A DNA stretch of 64,000 nt from Escherichia coli O157:H7 (GTDB lineage Bacteria > Pseudomonadota > Gammaproteobacteria > Enterobacterales > Enterobacteriaceae): NCBI RefSeq assembly GCF_013167455.1, contig NZ_CP038328.1; one strand, 5' to 3'. Each line of letters opens with the position of its first letter. Position 1 is the first letter of the stretch. The position numbers are program-made. Of the stretch, positions 51,001 through 60,000 are shown one piece after another.

Positions 51001-54000
51001 AGCCTCCGTAAAGTCATCGGCGGCGGAACAAAAACAGATCCAGAGCCAGCTGGATAGCCTGGTGTTGGGTGAACATTCTCAAATCGCCAGCCTGAAAGCG
51101 CAGCTCGCGGAAGCAAAATATAACCTTGAGCAGACGATAGTGCGTGCGCCGAGCGATGGTTATGTGACCCAAGTGCTGATTCGTCCGGGTACCTATGCCG
51201 CGTCGCTGCCGCTACGTCCGGTGATGGTGTTTATACCCGATCAGAAACGACAAATCGTGGCGCAGTTCCGTCAGAACTCCTTGCTGCGCCTGGCTCCCGG
51301 CGATGATGCGGAAGTGGTATTTAACGCTCTGCCAGGCAAAGTGTTCAGCGGTAAGCTGGCAGCCATTAGTCCAGCTGTTCCCGGCGGAGCTTATCAGTCG
51401 ACCGGCACCTTACAGACGTTAAACACAGCGCCGGGTTCAGATGGCGTTATCGCGACCATTGAACTGAATGAGCACACTGATTTGAGCGCTTTACCAGACG
51501 GTATTTACGCTCAGGTGGCGGTCTACTCTGATCATTTCAGCCATGTCTCGGTGATGCGCAAAGTGTTATTACGCATGACCAGCTGGGTGCATTACCTTTA
51601 TCTCGATCATTAATCTTCGCTTTCCGCCGCTTGTTCAGGCCGCAGTTGCTGCGACTGAGCAAGCTGGTGGCGAATTTCACGCAGCATTTCATCCAGCACA
51701 TACTGGACCCGCCAGGGCTGGTATTCCCGTTTACGGAAGATAGCCACCAGATCCAGCCACCATTCATACGGGTGCTGAAAGCAGGGCACCAGCGTGCCGT
51801 CTTGCAGATCGCTCTGCACACTTTTGTCTGGCGCAAACACAATCCCCAGGTGATTTCGTGCCAGCTCCAGCGCCGATTGCGTGTTATCGCAAACGTAATT
51901 TCCCTTCACGCGATAATCCCGCACCTCTTTACTCCCGGCGACGTTGAAGCGCCAGATATTCGCGTCGTCGATCATCATCGAGTCGATCAAAATACAGGAG
52001 TGATGTTCGAGTTCGTCAGGACGGCTAATAGGATGTTTCTCAAGATAGCGCTGGCTGGCATAAGCGGTTACGGCATATTGGGTAATAAAACTGGCAACCA
52101 GCGATTCATCTTTTGGTGGGGCATAGCTGATTAAAACATCACAATCATCAGGAAATTCGACGCCTTCATAAAAGGCATTACGCTCAAGATTGCAGGTTTT
52201 TAGCGATAAGGTGATATCACCGATATCTTTAATTTTATCGATTACATGTTTGGATAAATAGGTAATTATGCCGGTTGGGGCGTAGATGGTGACCCGACCA
52301 CGTTTCTCATGCTTATAATCTGCAATAAAATTATTAAGCTGCTCGTTTCTGTCCAGCATGTCGTTGATGTACGGTAATAGCGCGGTGCCAAAAAGTGTGA
52401 GCATCAGTTGTCGGGTGGTTCGGTCAAAGACTTTTAAACCCACTTTTGATTCAAAATCAGCAAGATATTTGCTGACGTTGGCCTGTGCGATGCCAAGTAC
52501 AGTCGCGGCATGGCTGATATTTTCACTGGCAGCGATTACCGAGATAATTTTTAACTCCCGGTACTTAAGTTGTAATTTTGTCATCGCAACAGCCCAATTA
52601 TATATAATTTTATATATTACTATATAAATATGAATCTTGCACCGGAGAAATTGTAAGCATTACTATGCCGACTCTTTTTTATCTTATTTTAAAATGGAAT
52701 ACCGGACATGTTAATTAACCGCAATATTGTGGCGTTATTTGCGTTGCCTTTTATGGCAAGCGCAACTGCTTCTGAATTATCCATTGGTGCTGGTGCGGCT
52801 TATAATGAATCGCCTTATCGCGGTTATAATGAAAATACAAAGGCAATTCCGCTGATTAGTTATGAAGGTGATTCTTTTTATGTTCGTCAGACCACGTTAG
52901 GTTTTATTCTGTCGCAAAGTGAAAAAAATGAACTTAGCCTGACCGCATCCTGGATGCCGCTGGAATTTGACCCTGCCGATAATGACGATTATGCCATGCA
53001 ACAGCTTGATAAGCGTGATAGTACGGCTATGGCGGGGGTTGCCTGGTATCACCACGAGCGTTGGGGAACCGTGAAAGCCTCTGCAGCTGCGGACGTTCTG
53101 GATAACAGCAACGGCTGGGTGGGGGAGCTATCGGTATTCCACAAAATGCAGATAGGTCGTCTGTCGCTGACACCTGCGCTGGGCGTTCTCTATTATGACG
53201 AGAATTTCAGTGACTATTACTATGGCATTTCAGAGAGTGAGTCCCGTCGTAGCGGTCTGGCAAGTTATTCCGCGCAGGATGCCTGGGTGCCCTATGTCAG
53301 CCTGACGGCAAAATACCCGATAGGAGAGCACGTCGTATTGATGGCGAGCGCAGGATACAGCGAGCTGCCGGAAGAGATTACCGACAGCCCGATGATTGAT
53401 CGTAATGAGAGTTTTACCTTTGTCACCGGCGTGAGCTGGCGTTTTTAATTCACCGGTGGATGTCGGTGCGGCTGGCCTACGCTCTCGCACCGACTTGTAT
53501 GCCTGATAAGACGTGTTAAGCGTCGCATCAGGCAATGTGCTCCTTACGTTGGATGCGGCGCGAGTGCCTTATCCAACCTACGGATGGCAATGCTTTTCCT
53601 CATTCACCCAGATCCGCATTTCGCCTTCACCCCGGTTGGCCCAGCTAAACCACGGGATAAAGGTCAGAGTTTGCGTCTGGCGTTTGGCTGGCGCGCTGTC
53701 GTAATGCCACAGCGGTTGCTGCTCTGGATTGCTCTGTTCATACCGGTAACCCGGTGCCTGGATTAAGATCTTATGGCTAAACAATCCCTTGCCTTCAAAT
53801 GTCGTAAATGGCGCATCGGTGGGCAGCCACAGATTATGCAGTGACTCGCCGTTGTCGGCCTTTTCCAGGCAATACACCAGCGGGCCGCGCTGAATCGCCA
53901 CTTTTCCGGCGACGTGACGCACCAGCGGGTTACCGTAAACGCGGCGTACCGGCATCGGCAAAGTCAGATTCAGCGTATCGCCCTCCTGCCATTCGCGGGT

Positions 54001-57000: not shown

Positions 57001-60000
57001 AAATGACCTGATTAATTCTGCCGTGAACGGGAATATCAACAAGGCGAGAAAAGAGTAAAAAAAGGTGACGATTCCGACCTGAATTTAAAAGTGTGAAATG
57101 GATCAGGTGAAATTAATGTTTTTGATTAATAATCAAAAGGTAATGTGTTTAATCATTAATGAATAAGCGGGAAATTACATATCAATGCTCGAATTATCCA
57201 TGACGTTACCGATTAAAGTGCAAAATGGTGGATTATTTATTTCCCGTGGCGTAGGGAGGCATTCTGCAAGGCGGCTGGAGTCATGGGAAATTATCTTTGT
57301 CGAAAAAGGTCGATTAACGATTCAGGAAGAAGAACGGATATTTCTGGTCGATGCGGGAGAGAGTTTATTACTCTGGCCGAACCGACAACATGTTGGGGTG
57401 GAGGATTTTCCCGCCGATCTCAAATTTTACTGGCTGCATTTTGAGGTTAAAGCGCCGGACAACGACCCTCGCTGGCTTACTCATCTTAGCGTGCCGCAAC
57501 AAACGAAGGTTGTCGATCCGCAGGCGCTGGTGGCCCTGTTTCGCCAGTTCTTAAGCGAACAGGAAAAGCATCAACGCACTCCGGCGCTGGAGTTTATTGT
57601 GCTGCTCATTTTGCAGCAGCTCACCCGTGACGCGCGTCTTGATGAACAGGCCGATGGCGCAGGCACCACCCTTGCCTGGAAAGCGCAGAAACTGATCCGC
57701 ACGCAATATCATCGCCCGCTTTCTACGGCGCTTCTGGCCCGCGAGCTGTACTGCAATGCCGATTATCTTGGGCGCGTCTACCGGCGGGTGTTTCATCTGA
57801 CGTTAACAGAAGCAATCCATCGCCAGCGGGTGCGCGAAGCCGAAAAGCTGTTAATTAGCGAAGCGCGATCGCTCACGGAAGTGGCGGCGTTGTGCGGGTT
57901 TAATGACGTTGGCTATTTCCGGCAGATTTTTCGCAAACACACCGGTTTAACGCCAGCAGCGTGGAAGCGGCGTTACAGCAAGGAACATATCAATTCGTAG
58001 TGCCGGGGCGATTTCGCTTTCGACATCACGTCTGAAACAGGTGGGGGAGAAAAATCTCCTGAAACCACTGCGTGAAACCGCGCAGGCTATTTCTAATGAA
58101 CTGGGATTTACTGTCAGGGACGACCAGGGCGCGATCACATAACGCTTTGGACAAGTGCCAAAACTTTAACATTTCCTTCGTTGGATCAAAGCAGTAGGGA
58201 CGCGCTCTCTGGCACTCTGCTGTTTTAGTGCAAAGGAGTGATCATGAACCGGTTTATTATTGCGGATGCGACGAAATGTATCGGTTGCCGTACCTGTGAA
58301 GTGGCTTGCGCAGTGTCGCATCAGGAGAATCAGGATTGCGCTGCGTTGTCACCAGACGAGTTTATTTCCCGTATTCGTGTCATTAAAGACCACAGCTGGA
58401 CCACGGCAGTAGCCTGTCATCAGTGTGAAGATGCACCGTGCGCGAATGTCTGCCCTGTTGACGCGATAAGCCGCGAACATGGGCATATTTTCGTTGAACA
58501 AACACGTTGCATTGGCTGTAAAAGCTGTATGCTGGCTTGCCCGTTTGGTGCGATGGAGGTCGTTTCTTCGCGCAAAAAGGCGAGGGCGATTAAGTGCGAT
58601 CTGTGCTGGCATCGGGAGACGGGACCGGCCTGTGTTGAAGCCTGCCCGACAAAGGCGTTGCAGTGCATGGATGTCGAGAAAGTGCAGCGGCATCGGCTAC
58701 GGCAGCAGCCTGTTTGAAACGTTTTTCCGGCGTTTCTCAACGCCGGAATAGTGCGCTTTGTTTATGCCAGATGCGGCGTAAACGCCTTATCCGGCCCACA
58801 AATTCTTGCAAATTAAATATATTGCAGAAATCATGTAGGCCTGATAAGCGTAGCGCATCAGGCAATTTTTAGTGACTTTCAGCCCAGGCTCTTTCTATCT
58901 CTTCCGCCAGAATCTTCACCCCCGCCTCAATTTTCTCCGGCTCTGGTACGTAGTTCATGCGCATACATTGATGCGTATGCGGCCACGGTTTGTCCAGCCC
59001 TGGGAAGAAGTTGTGCCCCGGCACCATCAGCACGCCGCGTGCTTTCAGGCGCTGATAGAGCTGCTCGGTCGTAATGGGCAAATCCTTAAACCAAAGCCAG
59101 AGGAAAATGGCTCCTTCTGGTTTATGAATTAGGCAGCGATCTTCCGGTAAATAGCGGCGAATGATGGCGATAGTTTCCTGAACACGCTGGTAGTAAAACG
59201 GTTTGATGACTGTTTCAGACAGGCGCAGCAGATCGTTACGCTTAATCATTTCACACATCATCGCCGGACCAATACCGCCAGGTGCCAGGCTGATAATGCC
59301 GTTCATATTGGTGATGGCGGTGATGATTTTTTCATTGGCGATGATAATGCCGCAGCGGGAGCCAGGCAGCCCCAGCTTGGAAAGACTCATGCACAGCACG
59401 ATATTCGGATTCCATAGCGGGCGCGCTTCACTGAAGATGATACCCGGGAACGGGACGCCATAAGCGTTATCAATCACCAGCGGAATGCCGTGTTGATTCG
59501 CCAGCGCGTCAAGCTTCAGCAACTCTTCGTCAGTAATCACATTGCCTGTTGGATTCGTCGGCCGGGAGACGCAAATCATCCCGGTTTCTTCGCCAATATG
59601 CAGATGCTCAAAATCGACGTGGTATTTAAACTGGCCTTCCGGCAGCAGTTCAATATTCGGACGCGCAGAGACAAACAGATCTTCTTCCAGTCCGGCGTCA
59701 GCGTAGCCAATGTATTCCGGTGCCAGCGGGAACAGTACTTTTTTGACCCGACCATCGGCACGGCGTCCGGCAAACAGATTAAATAAGTAGAAAAACGCGC
59801 TCTGGCTGCCGTTTGTTAGTGCAATATTCTGTGCTTCGATATCCCAACCCAACTTCTCGCGCAGCATTCCGGCAAGCAGTGTGAGTAGCTCCGTTTTCCC
59901 CTGTGGACCGTCGTAATTGCACAGTGCATCAGTCGCTTTGCCACTTTCCAGCATGTCGGTCAGTAGCGTCTGGAAGTAGTCCTGCATTTCCGGGATCTGC

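Follow-up and report, generated by a model that had tools for sequence, protein, structure and literature searches.

What do the three genes that separate yiaT from ysaA in Escherichia coli O157:H7 encode, and how did they come to lie in an interval that holds the genes from yiaJ to sgbE in K-12? The window analyzed here is a stretch of 64,000 nucleotides of O157:H7 DNA. The interval examined within it, between yiaT and ysaA, contains genes for a cation symporter of the glycoside-pentoside-hexuronide (GPH) family, TC 2.A.2, a glycoside hydrolase of family GH127 and, in divergent orientation, a regulator of the AraC/XylS family (hereafter, the cassette). This cassette is an old syntenic locus of the Enterobacteriaceae rather than a novel island. 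The properties of its products suggest that small β-L-arabinofuranosides are probably taken up in an inducible manner and hydrolyzed in the cytoplasm, which would feed L-arabinose catabolism.

Products and genes of the cassette

The hydrolase matched three Pfam domains, PF07944 (residues 20–435, E = 1.5e-111), PF20736 (E = 1.3e-23), and PF20737 (E = 5.6e-25), which correspond to the catalytic, middle, and C-terminal domains of GH127. Enzymes of this family consist of an (α/α)6 catalytic domain associated with a middle and a C-terminal β-sandwich domain. The closest relative of known structure was the Geobacillus stearothermophilus enzyme 4QJY (E = 2e-233, 780 bits, about 55% identity across an alignment of 629 positions), followed by HypBA1 from Bifidobacterium longum (E = 1e-149, 503 bits, 43% identity). 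Both proteins are named β-L-arabinofuranosidases. The other solved chains, which are BT1003-like or GH146-like, gave much weaker matches (319 bits for the BT1003-like 5MQO and 387 bits for 6EX6).

The assignment to GH127 had been proposed in a first-pass annotation of the window on the basis of the motif FGCACCPPN, which is indeed present, and alignment with HypBA1 extended the agreement to the active site. HypBA1 residues H142, H194, H270, E322, E338, C340, C417, and C418 are all identical at the aligned positions of the hydrolase, and no GH127 catalytic residue was found to be missing. We take Cys417 to be the nucleophile of HypBA1, Glu322 to be its acid/base residue, Glu338, Cys340, Cys417, and Cys418 to be its Zn2+ ligands, and the histidines to contact the sugar. 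Cys417 and Glu322 align with Cys414 and Glu318 of the 656-residue protein, and the Zn2+ site aligns with the conserved residues Glu334, Cys336, Cys414, and Cys415. The N-terminus of the hydrolase (MNISEVDLHK…) shows no signal-peptide features, and the enzyme should therefore be cytoplasmic. The sole NCBIfam match of the protein was to the aceric acid hydrolase model NF049879 and mainly involved residues 260–657. Identity with a BT1003-type aceric acid hydrolase was rejected since the score (457 bits) was far below the cut-off of this model (950 bits).

The symporter scored 329.6 bits against the GPH model TIGR00792 (cut-off of 231.35 bits), with a match covering model positions 1–437 of 437, and matched PF13347 (E = 1.4e-71), indicating an MFS_2 architecture. 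In contrast, scores were below the cut-offs of the models for MelB (352 versus 610 bits), UidB (319 versus 836 bits), YicJ-type carriers (203 versus 456 bits), and YagG (187 versus 528 bits). Orthology with any of these carriers of known substrate was therefore ruled out. The regulator contains an N-terminal ligand-binding cupin domain, AraC_binding (PF02311, residues 28–132, E = 1.9e-9), and a C-terminal double helix-turn-helix domain, HTH_18 (PF12833, residues 184–263, E = 4e-19). It is not AraC itself, as its score of 61 bits against the equivalog model NF007860 is to be compared with a cut-off of 208 bits, although the protein is still called 'arabinose operon regulatory protein' in some sources. 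Thus, the three open reading frames of the first-pass annotation were found where it had placed them, and its identification of a GPH-family symporter, a divergent AraC-type regulator, and the flanking genes yiaT and ysaA was confirmed by the domain matches and by existing annotation.

The cassette region is 100% identical to that of E. coli strain 2017C-4109 and of O157:H7 strains (Table 1). The Sakai annotation designates ECs4457, ECs4458, and ECs4459 as 'transcriptional regulator', 'permease', and 'hypothetical protein', respectively. In RefSeq, they now appear as 'AraC family transcriptional regulator', 'MFS transporter', and 'glycoside hydrolase family 127 protein'. The longest open reading frame of the hydrolase gene encodes 664 residues and reaches position 55572, and a shorter form of 656 residues starts at position 55548. 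The ATG at 55572, which overlaps the symporter gene, is devoid of a ribosome binding site. The ATG at 55548 is preceded at proper spacing by AAGGAG, a Shine-Dalgarno sequence that overlaps the TAA stop codon of the symporter gene, and is the start selected by the Prokaryotic Genome Annotation Pipeline (PGAP). The ATG at 55572 is therefore probably not the real start. With the preferred start at 55548, the two genes are separated by 10 nucleotides instead of overlapping by 14. The first-pass annotation had described them as translationally coupled. The two genes are tightly operonic and their spacing is compatible with coupled translation, but the overlapping start codon gave way to the 10-nucleotide gap. 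A search of positions 52000–59000 against Rfam detected no riboswitch or leader within the cassette. The same search returned a match to the small RNA ES036 (CssrF) at positions 58800–58842 (plus strand), between ysaA and avtA (49.5 bits for a gathering score of 37.6). The inverted repeats located downstream from the hydrolase gene are, in our assessment, akin to the repetitive extragenic palindromic (REP) elements of E. coli.

Table 1. Position of the cassette, its flanks, and the deletion junction in the window.
Feature	Position	Strand	Basis or remark
yiaT (MipA/OmpV family outer-membrane protein)	52708-53448	+	Open reading frame; name from annotation of identical strain 2017C-4109
Two REP-like inverted repeats	~53500-53534 and ~53552-53575		Repeat scan; 3' of GH127 stop
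GH127 glycoside hydrolase, 656 aa (Sakai ECs4459)	53578-55548	-	Pfam, PGAP coordinates, Shine-Dalgarno sequence
GPH family cation symporter, 466 aa (Sakai ECs4458)	55559-56959	-	TIGR00792, PF13347; first gene of two-gene operon
Divergent control region, 225 bp, AT-rich	56960-57184		Alignment of orthologous intergenic regions
AraC/XylS-family regulator, 271 aa (Sakai ECs4457)	57185-58000	+	PF02311, PF12833; divergent from operon
Deletion junction with GCCGGGGCGAT	58002-58012		blastn against strain G4/9
yiaJ 3' remnant, last 43 codons and stop	58002-58142	+	Translation compared with YiaJ; PGAP pseudogene call
ysaA (4Fe-4S ferredoxin-type protein)	58244-58717	+	Conserved flank, regulator side

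The divergent control region

To characterize the region separating the regulator gene from the operon, 25 orthologous intergenic regions were aligned, and the invariant columns were mapped back to the window and read on the minus strand. A perfect palindrome, TGATTATTAATCA (57123–57135), is located near the regulator gene and is invariant in the alignment. It is followed, in the direction of the operon, by a CRP-like site, CCTGATCCATTTCACA (57092–57107), whose TCACA half is invariant, and by a conserved box about 36 bp long, GGTCGGAATCGTCACC… (57044–57079), starting with GGTCGGAAT. The sequence CTTGTTG (57037–57043) resembles a -35 element, CAGAAT (57015–57020), found 16 nucleotides further, resembles a -10 element, and a Shine-Dalgarno sequence, GAGGAA, is present at about 56965–56970, ahead of the symporter gene.

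If CTTGTTG and CAGAAT act as -35 and -10 elements, transcription of the operon would start near position 57008 on the minus strand. On this basis, the conserved box would occupy approximately positions -71 to -36, and the center of the CRP-like site would fall near -91. We infer from these distances that the layout of the control region resembles that of araBAD, in which the activator sites adjoin the -35 element and CRP binds upstream. The AT-rich part of the region also contains a 23-nucleotide direct repeat (57114–57136 and 57141–57163, 78% identical) and overlapping palindromes around TGATTA/TAATCA within 57114–57166. These repeats and palindromes may form the operator of the regulator's own promoter.

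Proposed function and other possible substrates

A small β-L-arabinofuranoside would cross the outer membrane through porins and would be imported by the GPH symporter. In the cytoplasm, the GH127 enzyme would cleave the glycoside with the zinc-activated nucleophile Cys414 and the acid/base residue Glu318, and the freed L-arabinose would enter the araBAD pathway. Expression of the operon would probably be activated by the AraC-type protein from a site adjoining the -35 element, together with CRP at a site further upstream, as in an araBAD-like layout. Candidate substrates are Araf-β-1,2-Ara and hydroxyproline-linked β-arabinosides that other microbes would free from plant extensins, arabinogalactan proteins, or pectin. 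The absence of any secreted enzyme in the E. coli locus implies reliance on material released by plants or other microbes. Bifidobacteria have been reported to release and use Araf-β-1,2-Ara and hydroxyproline arabinosides by means of GH121 and GH127 enzymes. As far as can be judged from the sequence, the functional proposal of the first-pass annotation is supported, namely import by a GPH carrier, cleavage by a cytoplasmic GH127 enzyme, and AraC-type control, with a β-L-arabinofuranoside as the likely substrate. Neither of the conditions that this annotation had named as refuting it was observed, as K-12 lacks the genes and the hydrolase has the catalytic residues. The hydrolase is thus a predicted β-L-arabinofuranosidase, an activity classified as EC 3.2.1.185.

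Comparison with known systems provided both similarities and differences. Ara127N (AraN) from G. stearothermophilus T6 (4QJY/4QK0), the closest relative of known structure, has the same domain layout and the same CACCPPN motif, and both enzymes are intracellular. The gene encoding Ara127N is the last of a long L-arabinan operon served by ABC transporters, whereas the E. coli gene is accompanied only by the genes for a GPH symporter and an AraC-type regulator, with no arabinanase or α-arabinofuranosidase nearby. HypBA1, the founding member of GH127 (3WKW/3WRE), shares with the E. coli enzyme the catalytic and Zn residues as well as three sugar-binding histidines. Like HypBA1, the E. coli enzyme is predicted to be cytoplasmic and to act on imported small β-arabinosides. 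However, HypBA1 acts downstream from the secreted GH121 enzyme HypBA2 and an ABC importer, and no extracellular enzyme is encoded by the E. coli locus. Within E. coli, the combination of a symporter, a cytoplasmic hydrolase, and an adjacent dedicated regulator is reminiscent of yicJ-yicI (α-xylosides) and uidB-uidA (glucuronides), although the hydrolases belong to other families and the transporters to other subfamilies. The spacing of the conserved promoter blocks resembles that of araBAD, which is controlled by AraC and CRP, but the regulator of the cassette is not AraC.

Several observations weigh against the proposed function. First, GH127 groups several activities, as it also includes an aceric acid hydrolase, for which NCBIfam offers a model, and, according to a report on marine carrageenan regulons, 3,6-anhydro-D-galactosidases. 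Membership of the family is thus insufficient by itself to fix the substrate. Second, the activity of Ara127N is said to have been assigned largely by homology. Third, no sigma-70 promoter was detected between the divergent genes by a scan for consensus promoters and terminators, although the lack of a strong match is not surprising if the promoter depends on an activator. The conserved box was also searched for repeated half-sites that the regulator could bind, and none was clear, the only repeats being the AT-rich ones at 57114–57166. Fourth, the cassette has repeatedly been lost in E. coli (K-12-type scar in 2,461 genomes and complete loss in about 650), indicating that it is dispensable in many niches. 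Finally, our search of the literature retrieved no experimental study of an E. coli or enterobacterial GH127 cassette dealing with the enzyme, transport, induction, or growth.

The polyspecificity of GH127 raises the possibility that the same architecture serves another substrate, such as a branched sugar of the aceric-acid type, a 3,6-anhydro-galactoside, or an undescribed furanoside. We consider this to be unlikely. Aceric acid hydrolase was the only NCBIfam match of the enzyme, yet the 457 bits obtained are far below the score required by the model. The carrageenan-regulon members of GH127 reportedly differ in activity, and the symporter is orthologous to no named GPH carrier. These observations are outweighed by the hydrolase itself, which is much nearer to the β-L-arabinofuranosidase structures (780 and 503 bits) than to 5MQO (319 bits) or 6EX6 (387 bits) and in which the histidines lining the -1 subsite of HypBA1 are all conserved. 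Hydrolysis of β-L-arabinofuranosides therefore remains the preferred function.

Conservation, loss, and significance of the locus

Orthologs displaying 78% to 96% protein identity were found, in a scan based on one genome per species, in Escherichia, Citrobacter, Salmonella diarizonae, Klebsiella, Raoultella, Enterobacter, Kluyvera, Leclercia, Lelliottia, Kosakonia, Phytobacter, Pantoea, Buttiauxella, Mangrovibacter, and other genera. The divergent order of the regulator and symporter-hydrolase genes was kept in about 65 species of Enterobacteriaceae, with the symporter gene directly upstream from the GH127 gene. The cassette is often bordered in these species by sgbE or ysaA on one side and by yiaT on the other. 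The latter gene consistently flanks the GH127 end, for example in Citrobacter, Enterobacter, and Leclercia. The ratios of nonsynonymous to synonymous substitution rates (dN/dS) of the three genes ranged from 0.04 to 0.15 in comparisons with six species, indicating that all three are maintained by strong purifying selection.

Two further occurrences of GH127 genes are informative with respect to the functional unit and to the mobility of the hydrolase. A paralogous GPH-GH127 pair (about 70% identical) is associated with a LacI/CytR-type regulator between hisJ/argT and purF in Enterobacteriaceae bacterium MGYG-HGUT-00110 (locus L082, 4219–8956). The association of this pair with a regulator of another type indicates that the transporter and the hydrolase together form the functional unit. 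In Bradyrhizobium, GH127 orthologs that are 70% to 72% identical (loci L074–L080 and L083) occur without a symporter or AraC-type gene. In one of these loci (L075, 4701–8953), the GH127 gene lies directly 3' of a gene for a 698-residue S9 peptidase (oligopeptidase B-like). These observations point to transfer between phyla and perhaps to a glycopeptide context. The Bradyrhizobium neighbors (S9 peptidase and sensor kinase) provided no firm clue to the substrate. One record entitled Chryseobacterium sp. 18061 (L024) contains the same cassette, at coordinates identical to those of locus L023 from Citrobacter sp. 18056, and is probably mislabeled or contaminated.

The first-pass annotation had stated that K-12 carries yiaJ-sgbE between ysaA and yiaT and had presented the cassette as occupying that slot. 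Comparison with K-12 across ysaA-yiaT confirmed the gene content, and K-12 was found to lack intact copies of the cassette genes. The notion of a replacement did not hold, however, since both blocks are adjacent in 1,893 of 5,426 complete E. coli genomes and since both the window and K-12 contain remnants of the block that they have lost. In strain G4/9, the order is yiaT-GH127-GPH-AraC-sgbE-sgbU-sgbH-lyxK-yiaO-N-M-L-K-yiaJ-ysaA. Alignment of the window with the G4/9 locus (L002) by blastn showed that positions 57900–58012 correspond to L002 21301–21413 and positions 58002–58300 to L002 30390–30688. Relative to G4/9, the window thus lacks 8,987 bp, comprising sgbE through most of yiaJ. The breakpoint lies in an imperfect 11-bp repeat with 9 matching positions (GCCGGGGCGAT versus GCCGTGTCGAT), in which CGAT is exact, and the junction fuses the 3' flank of the AraC-type gene to the interior of yiaJ. 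Translation of the sequence located past the junction yields the C-terminal 43 residues of YiaJ, of which one is substituted. PGAP reports this yiaJ fragment as an IclR pseudogene lacking its N-terminus in strain 2017C-4109, whose sequence is identical. We found no publication specifically dealing with the O157 yiaJ-sgbE deletion.

Another consequence of the deletion is that a GC-rich hairpin, GCCGGGGC-GATGAA-GCCCCGGC, has lost its second arm (window 57998–58030 versus L002 21395–21440). In strains harboring both blocks, such as G4/9, this hairpin is located just 3' of the stop codon of the regulator gene, between this gene and sgbE. Without this arm, transcripts of the regulator gene may extend across the yiaJ fragment toward ysaA in the window strain.

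K-12 retains a 190-bp fragment of the region encoding the C-terminal part of GH127 (window 53686–53875, 88.9% identical). Directly fused to this fragment are the final 116 bp of the regulator region (57897–58012), of which 104 bp form the end of the AraC-type gene. The window segments 53476–53685, including the REP-like repeats, and 53876–57896 are missing. K-12 has therefore lost the cassette by a separate deletion of about 4 kb, independent of that found in the window. The remnants correspond to the pseudogenes ysaC and ysaD, located between sgbE (yiaS) and yiaT. A published strain description indicates that ysaC adjoins yiaS and that ysaD adjoins yiaT, and the site serves as a neutral integration locus. 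The K-12 fragments are thus non-functional relics of the same cassette.

The 5,426 complete genomes were accounted for by four states of the locus. In addition to the 1,893 genomes with both blocks, in which the regulator-sgbE junction is intact, 426 had the regulator-'yiaJ junction of the window, 2,461 had a K-12-type scar, and the hydrolase sequence was wholly absent from 651. In agreement with the first two of these counts (1,893 + 426), the hydrolase gene was detected at a coverage of at least 80% in 2,314 genomes, so that 43% of the complete genomes have kept the cassette. The junction of the window was also present in the non-O157 strain CUWW10 (98.4% identical) and in Escherichia sp. 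E1V33 (L004, 4290–4600; 92% nucleotide identity across the junction). Sharing of the junction with E1V33, which represents a divergent Escherichia lineage, suggests that the deletion allele is old or has moved by recombination. Other deletions affect the same interval. In a sequence type 131 (ST131) strain (L085, 7081–9050), yiaT-yiaW is lost and aldB abuts the hydrolase gene, and in Nissle (L086) everything from yiaW to the AraC-type gene is lost. The aldB-ysaA interval is thus a deletion hot spot. A further presence/absence polymorphism was noted nearby, as a gene for a Fic family protein (46662–47957, plus strand) is present between yiaY and aldB in the window strain, ST131, and Nissle, and absent from this position in K-12 and G4/9.

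Repeated and independent losses (the scar in 2,461 genomes, the Nissle-like state in about 650, and the yiaT-side deletion in ST131) would be accounted for if the cassette were decaying or cryptic in E. coli, kept by linkage and silent under natural conditions. A 2021 paper on the use of arabinose by O157:H7 on plants, which states that E. coli cannot directly access L-arabinofuranose (L-Araf), could be read in the same sense. We regard this explanation as quite improbable since the three open reading frames are intact in the window, dN/dS was 0.04 to 0.06 in the comparisons with E. whittamii and Citrobacter, the promoter blocks are conserved across genera, and more than two fifths of the complete genomes retain the cassette. 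The ST131 hydrolase gene, annotated as frameshifted, was likewise rejected as an instance of decay because the single-base indel is located within the last six codons.

Acquisition of the cassette as a horizontally transferred island that replaced yiaJ-sgbE at a single slot in this lineage has virtually no remaining probability and is refuted as a strain-specific event: although a two-way comparison with K-12 does show different genes in ysaA-yiaT, the GC content of the cassette is slightly above that of its flanks, and Bradyrhizobium orthologs at 72% identity attest to past movement of the hydrolase between phyla, the two blocks are not mutually exclusive (1,893 genomes contain them side by side), a 3' fragment of yiaJ lies at the microhomology junction in the window, K-12 keeps GH127 and AraC fragments, and the cassette has the same neighbors in many other genera. 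The history of the locus is, with near certainty, that of an ancestor in which the blocks lay side by side, followed by loss of yiaJ-sgbE in the lineage of the window in a single microhomology deletion and by independent loss of the cassette in K-12. Comparison of two genomes can thus be misleading, as an apparent island swap turned out to be two independent deletions from an ancestor with both blocks.

The cassette is standard in its protein families, operon logic, and annotation, the latter being generic in thousands of genomes, and current concepts are unchanged. A broader extension of the proposed function is that β-L-arabinofuranosyl disaccharides or hydroxyproline arabinosides freed by other microbes, for example by bifidobacterial GH121 enzymes, are scavenged by the approximately 43% of E. 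coli that have the cassette, among them O157:H7, and by most Enterobacteriaceae associated with plants or guts. We view this extension as distinctly unlikely, and its variant involving a new GH127 specificity as less likely. If scavenging were to occur, it would represent a form of cross-feeding and would help to determine the niche of these bacteria on plant surfaces and in the guts of herbivores, and it would contradict the view that arabinofuranosides are inaccessible to E. coli. If the proposed function is correct, a large fraction of E. coli, including all sampled O157:H7-type genomes, and many Enterobacteriaceae would possess a pathway devoted to a sugar linkage specific to plants, which these bacteria are generally said not to use. 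Such a pathway would be relevant to their persistence on produce, their life in the bovine gut, and their cross-feeding with bifidobacteria.

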